Assembly (NCBI GenBank): GCA_029210815.1
Contig: JARGGB010000002.1
Span: forward strand, 8,450 to 72,449
Direction: 5' to 3'
From: Candidatus Brevefilum sp.
GTDB lineage: Bacteria; Chloroflexota; Anaerolineae; Anaerolineales; Anaerolineaceae
DNA length: 64,000 nt
The notes beneath the pieces are model-generated. The model was not told the origin of the DNA, searched no databases, and saw only the letters and a list, made by a program, of their open reading frames with translations. A program made the position numbers and the translations under genes. Positions 11,943 through 62,537 of the stretch are shown one piece after another (the first letter of the stretch is position 1; every line of letters starts with the position of its first letter).

Positions 11943-13025
11943 ATGCTCAAAAGTAAACGCTATCCTGTTGAAGCACTGAAAGATTTCACCATCCGCTATT
12001 TTAAGGGGATGGGTGTTCCAGAAATCGATGCGAGAATTGCGGCAGATGTGTTGATATCTGCTGATTTGCGCGGGATTAATTCTCATGGCGTGATACGACT
12101 TCACAGTTATTACGGCGATCGGCTGCAAAAAGGACTGATTGATCCAGCCTCACCCATAAAAACGCTTTCGGAAAATCCTTCCACATTGGCTTTGGATGGG
12201 GGGAATGGTCTCGGGCAGGTCGTTGCTTATCGTGCAATGTCTCGCTGTATTGAAAAAGCAGATGAAACTGGCCTGGCTGTAACGACAGTCAGGAACAGCA
12301 ACCATTTTGGCATTGCCGGTTATTATGCAATGATGGCTTTGCCAGAAGACATGATCGGCATCAGCCTTACCAATTCACAACCTCTTATTGCCCCGACTTA
12401 TGGCATGAAACGGGTTTTAGGCACGAATCCAATTGCCGTTGCCGTCCCAGCTGGGGAAGAAAAGCCTTTTGTACTGGATATGGCAACAAGTATTGTGCCC
12501 CTTGGGCGAATTTCAGTGTATGAAAAAACCGGTCAGTCGATCCCGGAGGGTTGGGCAATCAATAAACACGGCGAGTTAACACAAAACCCCTCTGATATGA
12601 TCAACGGCGGTGCTTTATTACCCCTTGGTGGTCCGGCAGTGATGCGGGGGTACAAAGGGTATGGGCTGTCACTGCTCGTTGATTTGCTTTCCGGGGTTCT
12701 GGCCGGAGCAGCTTTTGGTGAGGATGTTGGGCGCCCCTCAAAAGAAAGAAATGCCGATGTAGGGCATTTCTTTGCGGCCGTCAAAATTAAAAACTTCCGT
12801 CCGATTGACGAATTTAAATCGGATACGGATGACTATATTCGATGTCTGAAAGCTTCACCGAAGCTTCCCGGGCAGGATCGCATCTTCATTCACGGCGAAA
12901 AGGAAGAAGAGCTGTCTGTAAAACATTTGCGTGAAGGTATTCCACTGCTGAATGAGGTCGTTGAAGCATTGGTAAAGGCGGGTGAGATTGCCGGTGTGCC
13001 TTTTGACCTTAAGCCAGTGCTGTGA
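11943..13025 (+). CDS. Ldh_2 family oxidoreductase (malate/L-lactate dehydrogenase, YbiC/AllD-like)
   Basis: DLRGINSHG, RNSNHFG, GTNPIA, DMATS, YKGYGL. Confidence 0.92.
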   Translation: MLKSKRYPVEALKDFTIRYFKGMGVPEIDARIAADVLISADLRGINSHGVIRLHSYYGDRLQKGLIDPASPIKTLSENPSTLALDGGNGLGQVVAYRAMSRCIEKADETGLAVTTVRNSNHFGIAGYYAMMALPEDMIGISLTNSQPLIAPTYGMKRVLGTNPIAVAVPAGEEKPFVLDMATSIVPLGRISVYEKTGQSIPEGWAINKHGELTQNPSDMINGGALLPLGGPAVMRGYKGYGLSLLVDLLSGVLAGAAFGEDVGRPSKERNADVGHFFAAVKIKNFRPIDEFKSDTDDYIRCLKASPKLPGQDRIFIHGEKEEELSVKHLREGIPLLNEVVEALVKAGEIAGVPFDLKPVL

Positions 13026-13207
13026 ACAAGTGCCAAAGAGGGAGAAATCCCAGTACAACAATAGGAAAAACCATTCCAGTTAAAACGAAACAAATTGGTT
13101 TGATGTAAATAGCGTATGGTTTCACCCCCTCCGTGACAATTTTTCAGTCAGTTAGAGATTGCTAGGCTACAAATTTGCCCTGGAAAAAATTCGCCTTTCT
13201 TACTTGC

Positions 13208-13438
13208 TCCCTCATCAGTCAGCTTGCATCTGAAACGAAGTGGAACACCTTCAGGTGCAAGGAGAAGCCTTAAAAGCCTTCCCGTAGAGCGAAGCGGAAC
13301 ACCCTTATTGCTGGGGGAAAGCGGCACGCCAAAGGCGTGACGGATGAGGATCCTTAGCCCACGTAAGATGGTGGAATCTTTTTCAGGCCAGTGAGGGAAA
13401 GATTGTCACGTATGATTGCAAGGGCAACCATATGTGAC
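13208..13438 (+). ncRNA. Candidate structured non-coding RNA (unassigned)
   Basis: Closing stem TCCCTCA/TGAGGGA encloses four hairpins, two of them capped by CGAAGYGGAACACC; a further hairpin at 13405-13438; G-U pairs favour the + strand. Confidence 0.5.
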
Positions 13439-13508
13439 CTACGATGGTCTCAAGTTGATTGCAGGAATAAAACCTTGTACTTTCAAAAATTAACTTTCCT
13501 TTTTGCAC

Positions 13509-13565
13509 TTGTATTTTAGAACAAATATGCTATACTAATAATTACCAAATTAGAACGTATATTCT
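13509..13565 (+). promoter_or_regulatory. Sigma70-type promoter with two candidate Gram-positive-type LexA boxes
   Basis: TTGTAT (13509)-16 nt-TATACT (13531); AGAAC-AAAT-ATGCT (13518) and AGAAC-GTAT-ATTCT (13552) versus AGAAC-N4-GTTCT. Confidence 0.45.
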
Positions 13566-13585
13566 ATTATCAAAACAGGTGCAGC

Positions 13586-14200
13586 ATGAAAAGAACCATT
13601 GTAATTCCCGCCGTTTTTATTGGATGTTTGATCGTAATTTGGGTCGGAACCGTGGCCGCATCCCATATGCCCTCGCAGGCGCTCCTGGCGCCGACTCAAA
13701 CAGCCATTGCCCGGGCTGCGCAATCCCCCTCCAACAAGGCCATCTCCCCTGAAGCATCTGACGAGGCTGCAAATCTCAAAACAGATTGTTCTCTTTCACA
13801 ACGTTACCCGGCTGAAATCCAGCAATGGTGCCAGCTGATCGAAGCGGCATCAACCATGACAAACCTGCCTTCCGGTTTAATCGCAGCCGTCATGCTGCAA
13901 GAAAGCGGCGGTAACCCGCTGAGCTATTCAAGCAGCGGCGCTGTTGGTCTGATGCAGGTCATGCCCCGCGATGGTCTGGCGTCTGAATTTATATGCATCA
14001 ACGGCCCCTGTTTTTCTTCCCGCCCTACCATCGAGGAACTTGAAGACCCGGAATTTAATATCAATTATGGCAGCCGTATGCTGGCAGATCTTTATCTCAC
14101 CCACGGTTCATACCGGGAAGCGCTCTTTCGCTATGGGCCAATGAACATCGGCTACCATTATGCGGACCTGGTCTTGAAGATTTGGAAATCTTATGGATAA
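13586..14200 (+). CDS. Lytic transglycosylase (SLT domain) with N-terminal anchor
   Basis: AVMLQESGG (catalytic Glu), GAVGLMQVMP, NINYG; hydrophobic N-terminus. Confidence 0.9.
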   Translation: MKRTIVIPAVFIGCLIVIWVGTVAASHMPSQALLAPTQTAIARAAQSPSNKAISPEASDEAANLKTDCSLSQRYPAEIQQWCQLIEAASTMTNLPSGLIAAVMLQESGGNPLSYSSSGAVGLMQVMPRDGLASEFICINGPCFSSRPTIEELEDPEFNINYGSRMLADLYLTHGSYREALFRYGPMNIGYHYADLVLKIWKSYG

Positions 14201-15403: not shown

Positions 15404-15512
15404 TGCCCGGGTAGGATTCCCGGCGGCACCCAGAGATACCTCCTTACCGCTGCTTCCTCTCGGACCTGACGGGGTTCGTAGGGCTCCGCCGCGCCGGTCC
15501 CACCCGGACGGC
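15404..15512 (-). ncRNA. ffs: Small bacterial SRP RNA (4.5S)
   Basis: Helix-8 signature TCAGGTCCGAGAGGAAGCAGC within a long hairpin with complementary ends; TTGACA (about 15545-15540) and TATTCT (15522-15517) upstream. Confidence 0.93.
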
Positions 15513-15668: not shown

Positions 15669-16802
15669 ATGAAAGTTAACGTTAAACAACAACAGCTTGC
15701 ACACTGCGTCAGCATGGTTTCCAGGGCAGTATCACCACGGAGCACTTTGCCCGTTCTCTCAAATATCCTGGTCAAAACAGATAATGGACGTTTGCGCTTA
15801 TCTGCGACCAACCTTGAACTGGGAATAACCTGCTGGATTGGTGCCCGCATTGAAGGCGAAGGTGCGATCACTGTGCCTGCTCGAACTTTCACAGATTTGG
15901 TCAGCAACCTGCCCAGTGATCAGGTGATATTTACGCTGGACAACAGCACCCAGACTCTGAATGTGCGCTGCGGCACCTCTGAGACCAACATCAAGGGCAT
16001 TGATGCAGAAGAATTTCCGCCTATTCCCGAACCAAACCTGGAAGAAGGGGTTCCTCTCAACGTCGTCAACTTCAAGGAAATGGTGCAGCAGGTAGCTTTT
16101 GCAGCCTCAACGGATGAAGCCCGCCCAGTATTGACGGGCGTGCTGTTAAAAATTGATGGTGATCGTATCACAATGGCTGCTACCGACGGTTTCCGCATTT
16201 CAATTCGTGAAGACGAAATTCCCAACGCAGTATCCCGCCCAATTGAAGCCATCATACCCGCCAGGGCGCTGGTTGAACTCGCTCGCATTATCGGTGGGGG
16301 CGATGAGACATTGATCATGACCTTCCCCCCTGACAGGGGTCAGGTCATCTTCCACATGGATGATTTGGAACTGGCATCGCAATTGATTGACGGCAGCTTC
16401 CCGGATTTTCGCGCAATCATCCCGCAAAGCTTCAAAACACACACGCTCCTCTCCACCAGCGGCTTGTTAAAAGCTTGTAAACAGGCGGAAATCATCGCTC
16501 GCGATAGCACAAATGTCGCCCGTCTTAACATCATCCCTGAAACTGATGAAACCAAACCCGGTACACTTGAAATTTCTGCACAATCAGAGCAAACAGGAAC
16601 TTCCGAGGTTCTGGTAGATGCCTCTGTGGACGGCGTCCCATTATTGGTGGCGTTTAACGTTCGTTTCTTGCGAGAAGTGCTTGAAGTGATCAAATCGGAC
16701 AACGTCTGGCTTGAGACCAATGCAGCAAATACGCCTGGCTTAATCCATCCACAGGGAGATGAGCATTTTAAACACATCATTATGCCCATGCACATTGGCT
16801 AA
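15669..16802 (+). CDS. dnaN: DNA polymerase III beta sliding clamp
   Basis: STLPVLSNIL, SATNLE, ARPVLTGV, ATDGFR, FPDFRAIIP, IIMPM. Confidence 0.97.
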   Translation: MKVNVKQQQLAHCVSMVSRAVSPRSTLPVLSNILVKTDNGRLRLSATNLELGITCWIGARIEGEGAITVPARTFTDLVSNLPSDQVIFTLDNSTQTLNVRCGTSETNIKGIDAEEFPPIPEPNLEEGVPLNVVNFKEMVQQVAFAASTDEARPVLTGVLLKIDGDRITMAATDGFRISIREDEIPNAVSRPIEAIIPARALVELARIIGGGDETLIMTFPPDRGQVIFHMDDLELASQLIDGSFPDFRAIIPQSFKTHTLLSTSGLLKACKQAEIIARDSTNVARLNIIPETDETKPGTLEISAQSEQTGTSEVLVDASVDGVPLLVAFNVRFLREVLEVIKSDNVWLETNAANTPGLIHPQGDEHFKHIIMPMHIG

Positions 16803-27841: not shown

Positions 27842-28348
27842 AAATAAAATCCTCTTTCCAATTTTGAATGTCTATTTATTGATGCAAAAAGAACCATTCA
27901 GGTTACAGTTTATTGGAAAGAGAGAGTCTTAATTAATTTATTCACATAGTTTATTTAAAGAATCTTTAATTAGTCGTAGTCGTAGGGTGTGTGGAAAAGT
28001 GGATAAAGGGAAAATAACTCGGGTGCTGAACATTTTTTACAGGGATATACTGGGAAGCATTGGTCAGCTTTGGAAAATTTTGGTTTACACCAGACGGTTT
28101 TTTATCAACAAATGCTTGTTGATATCCTGATAAATAAGGACCACTTTTTTGAACAAGTTTTATGAAGGGGAAAAAGTACTTCTTTTTATCCAGAAATTCT
28201 CCAGAATTCGGTGGAAATTTCACACAAAAATAGGGCAAGTTATCCACATTTCGTATAAGTTATCCACAGTTTTTGATGTTTTATCCACAGTTTTGTTGAT
28301 AAATGAGGTGTTTTTGAAGAAACAGACTGGTTGTGAAAAAAACAGAAA
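27842..28348. other. Probable chromosomal replication origin (oriC)
   Basis: TTWTNCACA boxes at 27938, 27990 (reverse), 28240, 28260 and 28281; 1-mismatch boxes at about 27998, 28102 and 28294; AT-rich 27928-27970; TAG/TCG trio run 27971-27985. Confidence 0.82.
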
Positions 28349-32744: not shown

Positions 32745-32782
32745 TTCGTCGGAATTATTCGATTGTATTACAGTCGGCCTAA

Positions 32783-32810
32783 CCCTCACGTCGTGCCTCC
32801 TGAGGGCAGG
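32783..32810 (-). repeat. Isolated copy of the REP internal core
   Basis: Minus strand CCTGCCCTCAGGAGGCACGACGTGAGGG, 26/28 identical to the core inside the REP at about 56386. Confidence 0.7.
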
Positions 32811-56353: not shown

Positions 56354-56366
56354 ATTCGATCAGCTT

Positions 56367-56565
56367 GTAGGGCGGGATGCGGTTTCCTGCCCTGAGGAGG
56401 AACGACGTGAGGGTCATCCCGCCGATTTTGTGCATCCCATTTTAAATAGATTCGGTTAGACAGGGTTGATATTTGAGACATGCCTGTCTGTTGGTTCAGG
56501 TCGGGAGACCTGAACCATCTTCGCGATGACAAAAAGCGGGATGAAAAACTCATCCCGCCGATTTT
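56367..56565. repeat. GTAG-type REP composite element
   Basis: GTAG-GGCGGGATG...CATCCCGCC, conserved spacer, palindrome GGTTCAGGTC-GGGA-GACCTGAACC, then GCGGGATG-AAAAACT-CATCCCGC. Confidence 0.8.
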
Positions 56566-59493: not shown

Positions 59494-60423
59494 TTACCAA
59501 TCTCCGGCATACCATCGAAGATATTGCGACAAATGGGCTGACCAGTAAGATTCTGAGTGGCCGCCATTGAACAGGTACCATTCGTGAGGGATAGCGTTTT
59601 GATCCAGTTGATTTGCAAATGTCAGTGCCGTTTGCCAATCCGGATCGTTACGGCCGATATCAAGATAAACCAAGGGCAAATCCTCCTTGGGGATTTTGGT
59701 AAGCCAGGTCTGAACCCGGTTTACATCGGATTTGAACAAGGGCAGACTGTGCCCGCCGACTTTGCTGAAGCGGTCATAATGCTCAAAGCCAAGCCTGACA
59801 GCCCAGGCGGCACCCCGTGAGAGTCCGCCGATCGCCCGGTACGCCTTCTCATCCAGGGTACGGAAATTTGAATCGACATGGGTGAGGAGTTCCTGCATGA
59901 CTGCATCACCAAAAAGGGATGACTCCGGCGGGGCGAAGCGCGCTTCCAGGGGCAGGACGACAATAAAGGGAGAAACCTCGCCAGATTGGATCAATGCGTC
60001 CATCTCACTTTTCAAGCCCAGACGAAGCCACTGCTGATTGTCATACGACAGCCCGTGCAGAAGGTACAGGACCGGGTAATGTTGACCCGGGTTTGAGTCG
60101 TAACAGGGCGGCAGGTAGATTTTATAGGAGAAATCAGCCGTCAGGATCTCGCTGGAAAAAGCCATATCTTCGACGGTACCGCCGTCCAGCAGGCAGTCTG
60201 GCGTGGGTGTAAGTTCCTGTTCATTGGGTTGGGCGGTGTTCACAAGGGGTATGGTAGGCGAAACTGTAATGCTTAGTCCAGGGGCATCTTCCGTTGTTTG
60301 CCTTGGGGTTTGGGTAATCGTCCGGGTGCCGCATCCAATCAGGAACAGGAGACAAACAAGCGCTGCTGCAAGTAAACGGGAAAAGGGCGCCAAAGTTGGT
60401 AGGAAGGCTTGACGTTTGGACAT
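59494..60423 (-). CDS. Esterase family (alpha/beta hydrolase) lipoprotein
   Basis: Lipobox LIGC; YLPP.Y, YPVLYLLHG, GGLSRG, GGH; ATG 60423 (the longer call runs into the tRNA). Confidence 0.87.
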   Translation of the reverse strand: MSKRQAFLPTLAPFSRLLAAALVCLLFLIGCGTRTITQTPRQTTEDAPGLSITVSPTIPLVNTAQPNEQELTPTPDCLLDGGTVEDMAFSSEILTADFSYKIYLPPCYDSNPGQHYPVLYLLHGLSYDNQQWLRLGLKSEMDALIQSGEVSPFIVVLPLEARFAPPESSLFGDAVMQELLTHVDSNFRTLDEKAYRAIGGLSRGAAWAVRLGFEHYDRFSKVGGHSLPLFKSDVNRVQTWLTKIPKEDLPLVYLDIGRNDPDWQTALTFANQLDQNAIPHEWYLFNGGHSESYWSAHLSQYLRWYAGDW

Positions 60424-60447
60424 ACTTCGGATTATACTCTTATCTGC

Positions 60448-60521
60448 CGGGGTGTAGCGCAGTCGGCCAGCGCGCCGCGTTTGGGACGCGGAGGTCGGCG
60501 GTTCAAGTCCGCCCACCCCGA
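60448..60521 (+). tRNA. tRNA-Pro (UGG)
   Basis: CGGGGTG/CACCCCG acceptor stem, anticodon arm CCGCG-TTTGGGA-CGCGG, GGTTCAAGTCC T-arm; the full CCA is not encoded. Confidence 0.96.
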
Positions 60522-60611
60522 CCTTAAAAAATGGGAAGACGAACGGAGGGCTTAACCAACGTTCTCCTTCCCATTTTTTATCTTATTGGGTTATTGAAAA
60601 AGGCTCAAGTC

Positions 60612-61343: not shown

Positions 61344-62004
61344 GTTTGACCTTTCGAGTTTGCCTGACCATCCGGATTTATCCTTTGAAAACAAATTATG
61401 GGGTGAGGGGCTGCGCTTTGTCGCTGGTGTGGATGAGGCCGGTCGCGGCGCGCTGGCAGGGCCGGTTGCGGCAGGGGCTGTTGTGCTTCCTTGCGACTTG
61501 CCCGATCTGGCCAATCTGCTTGAGGGAGTGAATGATTCTAAGGTGATGACACCCGCAGAGCGAGAAGCGAAGGCTGAAATTATCCGGGCTGTTGCATTTA
61601 GATGGGGCGTGGGCTTTGCCACTTCGGCTGAAATTGACCGGATTGGTATTCTGCCGGCAACCTGCCTGGCAGTCAGCAGGGCAATATTAGAATTGAAGTT
61701 GGAATTAGAGCATGTTTTGGTGGATTACCTGCGTTTGCCTGATTTGGATGTCCCACAGACCCCGCTTGTCAAAGGCGATGCCCGCTGCCTGTCGATTGCG
61801 GCAGCGTCGATCCTGGCGAAAACGGCGAGGGATGCTGTCCTGGTAGAAATGGATGGCACCTATCCCGGGTATTATTTTGCCAGCAACAAAGGTTATGGCA
61901 CCCAGGCACACAGGCAGGCGATCGCGCAGTTAGGCCCCTGTGACCAGCATCGTAAAACCTTTTCACCGGTGAAGGATTATTATTCCCTGTTCCCGCCGGA
62001 ATAA
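61327..62004 (+). CDS. rnhB: Ribonuclease HII
   Basis: GVDEAGRG.LAGPV, DSK, KGD...SIAAASILAK..RD, KGYGT..H. Confidence 0.96.
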   Translation: MTPRHKFDLSSLPDHPDLSFENKLWGEGLRFVAGVDEAGRGALAGPVAAGAVVLPCDLPDLANLLEGVNDSKVMTPAEREAKAEIIRAVAFRWGVGFATSAEIDRIGILPATCLAVSRAILELKLELEHVLVDYLRLPDLDVPQTPLVKGDARCLSIAAASILAKTARDAVLVEMDGTYPGYYFASNKGYGTQAHRQAIAQLGPCDQHRKTFSPVKDYYSLFPPE

Positions 62005-62009
62005 TCTAT

Positions 62010-62537
62010 GTAGGGTGGGATGCGGTCCTGCACTGAGGAGGGACGACGTGAGTGTCATCCCGCCGATTTTGTGTATTCCATTCCAAATATATTCGGTCAG
62101 ACAGGGTTGATAATGGAGACATGCCTGTGATGGTGCGTGGAAAGGCACCACGCACCCTACGAGGATGTTTGTAGTATTAATGCATTCCATAACAAATGAA
62201 TTCGGTCAGACAAGGTTGATATTGGAGACATGCCTGTGATGGTGCGGTGAAGAACGCACCGCACCCTACGGATATGTTTGTAGGGCGGGATGCGGTCCTG
62301 CACTGAGGAGGGACGACGTGAGTGTCATCCCGCCGATTTTGTACATTCAATTCCAAACAAATTTGGTAAGACAAGGATGATATTGGAGACATGTCTGTGA
62401 TGGTGCGGTGAAGAACGCACCGCACCCTACAAAAATACAAAGATTTTATGCATTCCATTCCAAATATATTCGGTCAGACAAGGTTGATATTGGAGACATG
62501 CCTGTGATGGTGCGTGGAAAGGTACCACGCACCCTAC
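62010..62537. repeat. Tandem REP/BIME-like array
   Basis: Two forward GTAG-GGYGGGATG...CATCCCGCC units (62010, 62280) and four reverse GGTGCG...CGCACC-CTAC units (ending 62160, 62269, 62430, 62537) joined by a conserved spacer. Confidence 0.88.

Follow-up and report, generated by a model that had tools for sequence, protein, structure and literature searches.

A nested patch of modular REP/MITE-like repeats probably accounts for an RNA-like fold between the Ldh_2 and SLT genes of a Brevefilum-like Anaerolineae chromosome

The stretch of DNA analyzed here, called the window below, comprises 64,000 nucleotides (nt) of contig JARGGB010000002.1 from Candidatus Brevefilum sp., and homologues of its SLT and Ldh_2 proteins placed it among the Brevefilum-like Anaerolineae. 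A gap of 560 nt lies between the open reading frame (ORF) of an Ldh_2-like dehydrogenase, which ends at 13025, and that of an SLT-domain transglycosylase, which starts at 13586. An earlier note, made from the letters alone, had given this gap the same length and had proposed that it encodes a novel multibranch RNA with twin hairpin loops. Our data showed that positions 13140-13402 are probably an accessory non-coding patch of nested modular repeats, similar to repetitive extragenic palindromic (REP) sequences and miniature inverted-repeat transposable elements (MITEs), in the chromosome of a Brevefilum-like member of the Anaerolineae. The features of the locus are given below, with reference to the same gap in a relative, L078.

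11943-13025, + strand: ORF of the Ldh_2-family dehydrogenase.
13113-13139, no strand: degenerate left copy of the flanking palindromic hairpin, ending in GTGACAA (13133-13139) and aligning with the complete hairpin of L078; direct and inverted repeats also mark this site.
13140-13402, + strand: the accessory segment as a whole (263 nt), with inverted GTGACAA ... TTGTCAC as its boundaries, aligning end to end with the opposite strand of L078.
13140-13207, + strand: left arm of the outer, low-copy segment, with 78.5% identity to L078.
13208-13350, + strand: the core, a MITE-like dispersed element of 143 nt that folds into a three- or four-way structure and has inverted ends of 12 nt.
13210-13221, + strand: 5' inverted end CCTCATCAGTCA, paired with 13338-13349 in a stem that L078 retains, one U-A pair there being changed to U-G.
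13234-13271, + strand: repeat unit copy 1, a high-copy sub-module, with its 14-mer at 13236-13249.
13284-13310, + strand: repeat unit copy 2, GTAGAGCGAAGCGGAACACCCTTATTG, a 27-nt insertion in the loop of the hairpin CCTTCCC/GGGGGAA and the second twin loop of the earlier note.
13313-13349, + strand: tail module GGGGGAAAGCGGCACGCC-AAA-GGCGTGACGGATGAGG, 37 nt, the highest-copy sub-module, which holds a third, degenerate copy of the motif.
13351-13402, + strand: right arm of the outer segment, including TGAGGGA (13392-13398), with 84.8% identity to L078.
13403-13438, no strand: flanking REP-like palindromic hairpin TTGTCACGTATGATTGC-AAGG-GCAACCATATGTGAC, which in relatives has CAC-GTAG-GTTGC on its 5' side.
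13586-14200, + strand: ORF of the SLT-domain transglycosylase.

The same gap was compared among relatives. The gene order GH3 - GDPD - Ldh_2 - gap - SLT - methyltransferase - signal recognition particle (SRP) RNA - dnaN was kept in them, but the gap itself was not, and its content was as follows.

L075/L076 and L086/L087: gap of about 305 nt with a lone palindromic hairpin (..TGTCAC-GTAG-GTTGC..GCAAC..GTGACCTACGATGG).
L085: element absent, and flanking hairpin absent too.
L088, L089 and L079: no element.
L078: whole segment on the opposite strand, with a full copy of the hairpin on each side.
L077: segment in + orientation and then the hairpin, located upstream of sequence that is missing from the window.

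Segment 13140-13402 was missing from most of the relatives retrieved. The flanking hairpin was found twice in L077, and the contigs of L077 and L084 break inside or beside the element or the hairpin. The nucleotide identity to the window in the flanking genes was 86-89% for L075-L078 and L084-L087, and in the SLT gene it was about 87-89% both in non-carriers (L075, L076, L085-L087) and in carriers (L077, L078). Because non-carriers and carriers are equally identical to the window (86-89%), the differences in the gap do not track relatedness. The sequence downstream of 13439, with the SLT promoter-like sites, was conserved in all close relatives. Six more contigs carried the Ldh_2 protein of L086/L087, with neighbours reported to be mostly alike; their gaps were not in the comparison. 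A further small insertion, ATTTTATTCCTTGAAT...CCACGAAGTA, separates the flanking hairpin from the SLT promoter region in L084 (24-123, about 90 nt) and L077 (about 126-230), so the same gap has at least five or six structural alleles among the relatives.

The alignment of the window (+ strand) with L078 (- strand) extended from GTGACAA (13133-13139) to TTGTCAC (13403-13409), and this extent defines the 263-nt segment 13140-13402. Its outer inverted arms (13132-13150/13392-13410) are 19 nt long and 84% complementary, while the left and right arms pair imperfectly (13176-13206/13360-13390, 74%). At the position of the second twin loop, L078 has a plain hairpin, CCTTCCC-TC-GGGGGAAGG, with TC as its loop; therefore, 13284-13310 of the window is a 27-nt insertion, starting with GTAG. 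L078 has a 13-nt insertion of its own after position 13229. The identity between the window and L078 was 78-85%, not higher than the 68-89% of neutral-looking nearby spacer among relatives. The structure had been closed in the earlier note by a stem of TCCCTCA (13208-13214) and TGAGGGA (13392-13398). Both words were found where claimed, but TGAGGGA is replaced by TGACAAAGAGG in L078, where four of the eight pairs of this stem are broken. Repeat analysis showed a stronger alternative closing stem, overlooked before, between 13210-13221 and 13338-13349 (92% complementary). When the minimum free energy (MFE) fold within 13208-13398 was compared with L078, 40 of the 62 pairs were unchanged, 4 had one-sided changes, 1 was compensated, 9 were broken and 8 were lost with the absent loop. 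The earlier note had itself named homologues without covariation and loop conservation as evidence against a structure under selection, and L078, with nine pairs broken and one compensated, is such a homologue.

Contigs from eight runs, seven of metagenome DNA and one of RNA, were also aligned to the region; the dispersed copies described here are copies seen across metagenomes. The 5' edge of the core was sharp at 13208/9, where three unrelated left flanks were seen (X6, X24, X25), and the 3' edge was sharp at 13349/50, followed by many unrelated right flanks. These sharp edges with unrelated flanks showed that the core, 13208-13350, is a dispersed, MITE-like element. Its sub-modules were also found separately. 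Sub-module 13234-13271 was present in X2 and X25 as 38-nt unitigs with 0 mismatches and a raised depth of 23-35; it, too, ended sharply and was joined to many unrelated flanks. The tail module, 13313-13349, was carried by 5-11 different contigs in each metagenome. Its ends were sharp, its flanks differed, and its depth in the DNA runs was about 1.8-4.7 times that of the flanking genes; certain tail copies have the 28-nt unit described below immediately before them. Variants reading ..CCTTCCCT and then GGGGG are without unit 2, and variants with unit 2 occur too. An empty site was also present in a 2117-nt contig of X6. A metagenome scan with GGAACACC..CCTTAAAAGCCTTCC was too strict, and its single match, inside an extracytoplasmic function (ECF) sigma-factor gene, was due to chance.

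The repeat unit of the window is 28 nt long, (GTAG)GAGCGAAGCGGAACACC(TTYAGGTGT), and the twin loops are two copies of it. As the earlier note had counted, the twin 14-mers CGAAGTGGAACACC (13236-13249) and CGAAGCGGAACACC (13290-13303) are identical at 13 of 14 positions. In the 64 kb, CGAAGYGGAACACC has exact matches only in these two 14-mers (at 13236 and 13290), and a pair as similar as theirs arose in 2 of 200 shuffles of the gap. The repeat analysis added the third, degenerate copy of the motif, AAGCGGCACGCC at 13319-13330, which had been overlooked. The similarity of the two copies extends past the loop, to GTAG.AG on the 5' side and TTCAGGTG on the 3' side. Conserved loops on different stems had been read as a sign of selection on RNA rather than of plain DNA duplication. 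Plain DNA duplication is, however, what the pattern reflects, because a 28-nt DNA unit is repeated and the similarity runs beyond the loop on both sides. The loops are not conserved either, since the second twin loop is absent from L078 and from several metagenome variants.

A scan of a genome collection for two copies of the motif, with a pattern that picks up tandem repeats of any origin, returned 70 loci, among which only those of the Chloroflexota metagenome-assembled genome (MAG) MAG58 were truly related. Five contigs of MAG58 (JAXHUT01) bear tandem arrays of the form (CCTGGAG)(CGAAGCGGAACACCTTYAGGTGTAGGAG)n, namely L024 (5522-5640), L029, L043, L044 and L065; the arrays are intergenic, start with CCTGGAG and end with ..CTTCAGGTGCATACCCTACAAAAAA. 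Copy 1 of the window aligns with the MAG58 unit over about 40 nt, and copy 2 matches GTAG-AGCGAAGCGGAACACC of MAG58 at 20 of 21 positions. The number of units is one in L078, two in the window and at least 3-5 in the MAG58 arrays. GTAG stands at three indel edges: the start of unit 2 (13284-13287), the end of the L085 deletion (right after CACGTAG) and the boundaries of the array units. Of the 24 metagenome runs listed, 20 contained words of the MAG58 arrays (aquatic, marine, sludge, landfill, sediment and biofilm samples), and sample S4 holds both array words and words of the gap of the window. Taken as a single locus, the gap is polymorphic in the presence or absence of the segment, in its orientation and in the number of its modules, and copies also occur elsewhere, both dispersed and in tandem arrays.

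Most of the other scan matches were rejected as relatives: they were coding repeats, 23-nt arrays of Vicinamibacterales, CGGAACAC arrays of Mucilaginibacter, or a terminator-like hairpin of Geobacillus. The Vicinamibacterales MAGs (among L002-L066) have unrelated multi-copy elements with GAAGYGGAACAC and the 23-nt arrays GGAGGAAGTGGAACACGGATTTC at many loci per genome. In Mucilaginibacter sp. UR6-11 (L007, L013, L015, L042, L057, L059), unrelated CGGAACAC-rich arrays begin with inverted GTGTTCCACTTTGCGTGAGCGGAAC, and GAAGYGGAACAC is present as well. Among the MAG58 arrays of the 28-nt unit, several are located at contig ends, and L043 additionally has related repeats of the form CCTGGAGCGAAGCGGAGGGTGCATCG.

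The predicted fold was compared with shuffled sequences. The multibranch fold that had been claimed is real and unusually stable: 13200-13445 folded at -90.5 kcal/mol (z -4.1), and 0 shuffles folded as stably. The claimed preference for the + strand was marginal (-90.5 vs -86.5 kcal/mol, z -4.1 vs -3.95), and the consensus folds of the window and L078 (RNAalifold) were equally good on the two strands (-47.9 vs -46.6 kcal/mol). Removal of unit 2 from the core left the fold intact (-47.7 kcal/mol, z -3.9), and the outer arms alone were no more stable than shuffles (z -0.2). Of the individual hairpins, CACGCC-AAA-GGCGTG was located at 13325-13339, and the 12-bp stem 13223-13234/13250-13261 exists, with 11 Watson-Crick pairs and one G-T. 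The long hairpin at 13405-13438 is real, with 14 pairs (-18.0 kcal/mol, z -4.7), and in place of a fourth, bulged hairpin at 13345-13384 the MFE fold shows two small hairpins. From outside to inside, the nesting consists of REP-like, GTAG-bearing hairpins, the low-copy outer segment, the 143-nt core and, within one of the hairpin loops of the core, the extra 28-nt unit. The twin loops, like the multibranch fold as a whole, arise because inverted repeats are nested in one another.

The earlier note had also seen GGA exposed in several loops and linkers. GGA occurred 8 times against 5.3 expected, a number reached by 241 of 2000 shuffles, and was unpaired in 3 of 8 cases, which is no preferential exposure at an overall unpaired fraction of 0.34. 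A GGA-binding protein sponge of the CsrA/RsmA type was rejected because GGA was neither enriched nor preferentially unpaired.

Membership of an Rfam family was taken as a covariance-model score at or above the gathering threshold of the family. At these thresholds, Rfam 15 gave only tRNA-Pro and SRP RNA in the whole window, and no family, whether 6S, riboswitch, self-cleaving ribozyme, IS605/HEARO-type RNA or other, matches the element, which could not be assigned to one in the earlier note either. The top match in a permissive scan of 13000-13620 (E <= 10) was RT-6 (E 0.47), whose 16.9 bits fall short of its threshold of 46.7, and the scan contained no match to 6S, riboswitch or ribozyme models. 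A scan of L077, L078 and the MAG58 arrays gave SRP RNA only. The resemblance of the linker 13262-13275 to the 6S RNA bubble, proposed in the earlier note, was not substantiated by any 6S match even at E <= 10. A hammerhead idea, based on CUGAUGAG on the - strand at the 5' inverted end, was dropped since no ribozyme model matches.

Coding capacity and control sites were searched as well. An ORF that runs across the element had no homologues when used as a protein query and is not conserved in L078. Viral scans gave only coding GTPSGV matches or unrelated repeats, and BLAST of the element against plasmids and phages gave no match. No promoter- or terminator-like site was found inside or beside the element; SLT promoter-like sites and two conserved GAAC-N4-type boxes lie downstream of it, at 13515-13570. 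A sigma-54 promoter, GGCACG-N4-..GC in the tail hairpin, was judged to be a coincidental product of the palindrome. GTGGAACA resembles a parS half-site; a parS, DnaA-box or origin role of the element was rejected, the probable oriC being about 15 kb away, at 27.9-28.3 kb.

Among known systems, the closest in design are the BOX elements of Streptococcus pneumoniae and S. suis, which, like the present repeats, are small, non-coding, tightly folded, intergenic and modular, with inverted ends that pair. In the pneumococcal boxA-(boxB)n-boxC arrangement, the fold withstands both the loss and the multiplication of boxB, the two inverted ends are paired with each other, and the repeats occur in clusters and inserted within one another (PMC3049150). 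Here, a head and a tail enclose the 28-nt units, of which there are one or two at this locus and arrays of up to 5 or more in MAG58, and the fold tolerates the loss of a unit. However, the sequences and the phylum are unrelated and the unit here is 28 nt. The likeness is one of design and not of shared ancestry. We know of no mobilising transposase for BOX or for the present repeats.

REP, BIME and REPIN sequences are likewise short extragenic palindromes, often tagged with GTAG, clustered or in tandem, and variable among strains. The REP-associated tyrosine transposases (RAYTs) cleave at GTAG, and REPs are clustered or in tandem in Chloroflexi as well (PMC3733652). The likeness here lies in the flanking hairpin, CAC-GTAG-GTTGC..GCAAC, and in units and two indel edges that start or end at GTAG. 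A REP was taken as a short imperfect palindrome with a stem of 5-13 bp and an unpaired GTAG tag at one end. The hairpin of the relatives has GTAG directly 5' of GTTGC..GCAAC, yet its long form pairs GTAG, and the window has GTAT where their hairpin has GTAG. Unit 2 and the array units begin with GTAG, and their palindrome is downstream; in the 28-nt unit, GTAG overlaps the 3' side of a small palindrome instead of preceding the palindrome. Further differences are that no RAYT gene is present among the about 50 ORFs of the window and that the 263-nt segment far exceeds a BIME linker. The MITEs (Correia, ERIC/IRU, RUP, Nezha) share with the present element small size, lack of coding, presence or absence at orthologous sites, unrelated flanks and terminal inverted repeats (12 nt at 92% for the core, 19 nt at 84% for the outer segment). 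A difference from MITEs is that no target-site duplication was found at the window and L078 copies, and no parent insertion sequence with matching ends was found. Tandem-aptamer and twin-hairpin riboswitches (glycine, guanidine-II/mini-ykkC) also place two near-identical hairpin loops upstream of a gene, but here position, orientation and second hairpin are not conserved, and there is neither an Rfam match nor an expression platform. With 6S RNA only the proposed resemblance of one linker is shared; no 6S model matches at E <= 10, the fold is not a rod, and relatives do not conserve the locus.

According to the repeat interpretation, the modules would have spread as DNA. A candidate mover would be a single-strand, hairpin- or GTAG-directed tyrosine transposase of the Y1/RAYT type, and recombination between hairpins may be another route; on sequence grounds, the GTAG tags suggest a hairpin-directed mechanism of the REP/RAYT type. 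If the host is affected at all, this would be a by-product of co-transcription, the element forming, for instance, a structured 3' end of the Ldh_2 transcript. Such effects of co-transcription on the host have been reported for REP, BOX and ERIC elements.

Several results weigh against a patch of mobile DNA repeats. No transposase, RAYT, recombinase, invertase or reverse transcriptase was found among the about 50 window ORFs, which are housekeeping genes; no target-site duplication was found in the flanks of the window and L078 copies; the 64-kb window holds one copy of the element only; and GTAG is base-paired in the long flanking hairpin, unlike in canonical REPs. The core alone (13208-13350) folds significantly stably (-57.5 kcal/mol, z -4.3), the stem 13210-13221/13338-13349 is kept in L078, including its U-A to U-G change, and a sediment RNA library has contigs that match parts of the element. 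These last three results are also what would speak for a multi-copy, possibly mobile family of structured small RNAs, in which the 143-nt core would be the RNA, a protein or ligand would bind its GGAACACC hairpins, and gene-family turnover would account for the polymorphism of the DNA. In L078, the hairpins are kept together with the closing stem, and the consensus structure has 7 one-sided changes, 2 double changes and 0 broken pairs; the 5' arm of hairpin 1 reads TGCATCTGAA in the window and CCTGGAG in L078 and MAG58, both pairing with a constant 3' arm. However, this comparison comprises two full sequences only, and the consensus fold of the opposite strand is equally good. The second loop can be dispensed with, the element is accompanied by neither a promoter-like nor a terminator-like site, conservation is the same as in the adjoining spacer, and GGA is not enriched. 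The depth of the modules in the RNA library was 6-11 times that of the flanking genes, but the one RNA run in which related words occur comes from sediment and was made with oligo-dT, its contigs are unstranded, it may contain DNA, it is silent on a discrete transcript, and the depth was also raised 1.8-4.7 times in the DNA runs. We regard a small RNA family as unlikely. Its bolder form, that the core and its kin are an undescribed Anaerolineae family of modular multi-copy RNAs whose GAAGYGGAACACC hairpins, in one to many copies, would be recognised by a dedicated protein, and which would spread as DNA and act as RNA, appears more doubtful still. The domesticated mobile RNA that the earlier note had offered as an alternative points the right way in its derivation from a mobile element, but the main RNA reading of the note fails.

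At this locus the segment points one way in the window and the other way in L078, and its boundaries are inverted GTGACAA/TTGTCAC within palindromic hairpins. This would also be expected of an invertible DNA switch, in which a recombinase flips the segment between inverted repeats and alters expression of SLT or Ldh_2; the assemblies of L084 and L077, moreover, break at the hairpin or within the element. Of the features of an inverton, the inverted repeats are present, and the two orientations were seen in different lineages. More than an inversion separates the two loci, however, as L078 keeps extra spacer and a full left hairpin while the left repeat of the window is degenerate. The segment contains no promoter-like site, the window encodes no invertase, the promoter region of SLT itself is conserved and lies downstream of the element, and no strand-changing joints were seen in the aligned contigs, except one palindromic duplication of the tail module. 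A switch is very improbable. Last in probability, and hardly credible, is the proposal of the earlier note that the element is a cis-regulatory leader of the transglycosylase gene, either a tandem-aptamer riboswitch or a protein-binding attenuator. It would suit a position upstream of SLT on the same strand and two similar hairpin loops, but the element is absent, inverted (L078) or displaced (L077) in relatives that keep SLT and its promoter region. The candidate SLT promoter-like sites and the GAAC-N4-type boxes (13515-13570) lie downstream of the element, no Rfam riboswitch matches at E <= 10, neither a terminator nor an anti-terminator is present, and the twin loop is not conserved. Because the gap is variable while the SLT promoter region is conserved, a transglycosylase leader RNA is excluded.

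Other features were observed in the window. Two direct repeats, TTAGAACAAATATGCTAT (13516-13533) and TTAGAACGTATATTCTAT (13550-13567), overlap the SLT promoter-like sites, and every relative retains them, the distant L079 and L089 included; they resemble GAAC-N4-GTTC LexA boxes (Cheo-type), which from the sequence hints at SOS control of the SLT transglycosylase. At 27938-28302, ten DnaA-box-like 9-mers, including perfect TTATCCACA at 28240, 28260 and 28281, lie in an intergenic region at the minimum of the cumulative GC skew, and this is probably the chromosomal origin. A distance of about 12 kb separates the putative origin from dnaN (15669-16802), and the window has no dnaA gene next to the origin. 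A second, unrelated family of dispersed repeats was found at 56363-56519, 62004-62537 and 32775-32810. Between the RNase HII and NAD synthase genes it forms a tandem array of four copies, each about 108 nt long and with GGTGCGGTGAAGAACGCACCGCACCCTAC hairpins; a single copy lies at 56.4 kb, and part of a copy, in inverted orientation, at 32.8 kb. The two RNA genes found with Rfam are as follows.

15406-15505, - strand: SRP RNA, between the methyltransferase gene and dnaN.
60448-60523, + strand: tRNA-Pro(TGG).

A mechanically called ORF (59494-60516, - strand) overlaps the tRNA-Pro(TGG) gene, and the true start of this ORF must be further downstream.

The repeat patch takes the place of a false lead: a stable, twin-loop multibranch fold that mimics a tandem riboswitch arises from nested palindromic repeats, and this is a caution for RNA discovery from sequence alone in repeat-rich genomes. 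In the literature searched, these Anaerolineae repeats are not described; their kind is well known, and the Anaerolineae example is an addition to it. Brevefilum-like Anaerolineae are abundant fermenters in anaerobic digesters and sediments, and a modular interspersed repeat system is now documented for them; its parts are GTAG-bearing hairpins, a tail module of 37 nt and a 28-nt unit, the last of which is also found in tandem arrays. At this locus the repeats interrupt metagenome assemblies (L077, L084); they could serve as strain markers, and they may offer a substrate for the study of hairpin-directed transposition beyond Proteobacteria.

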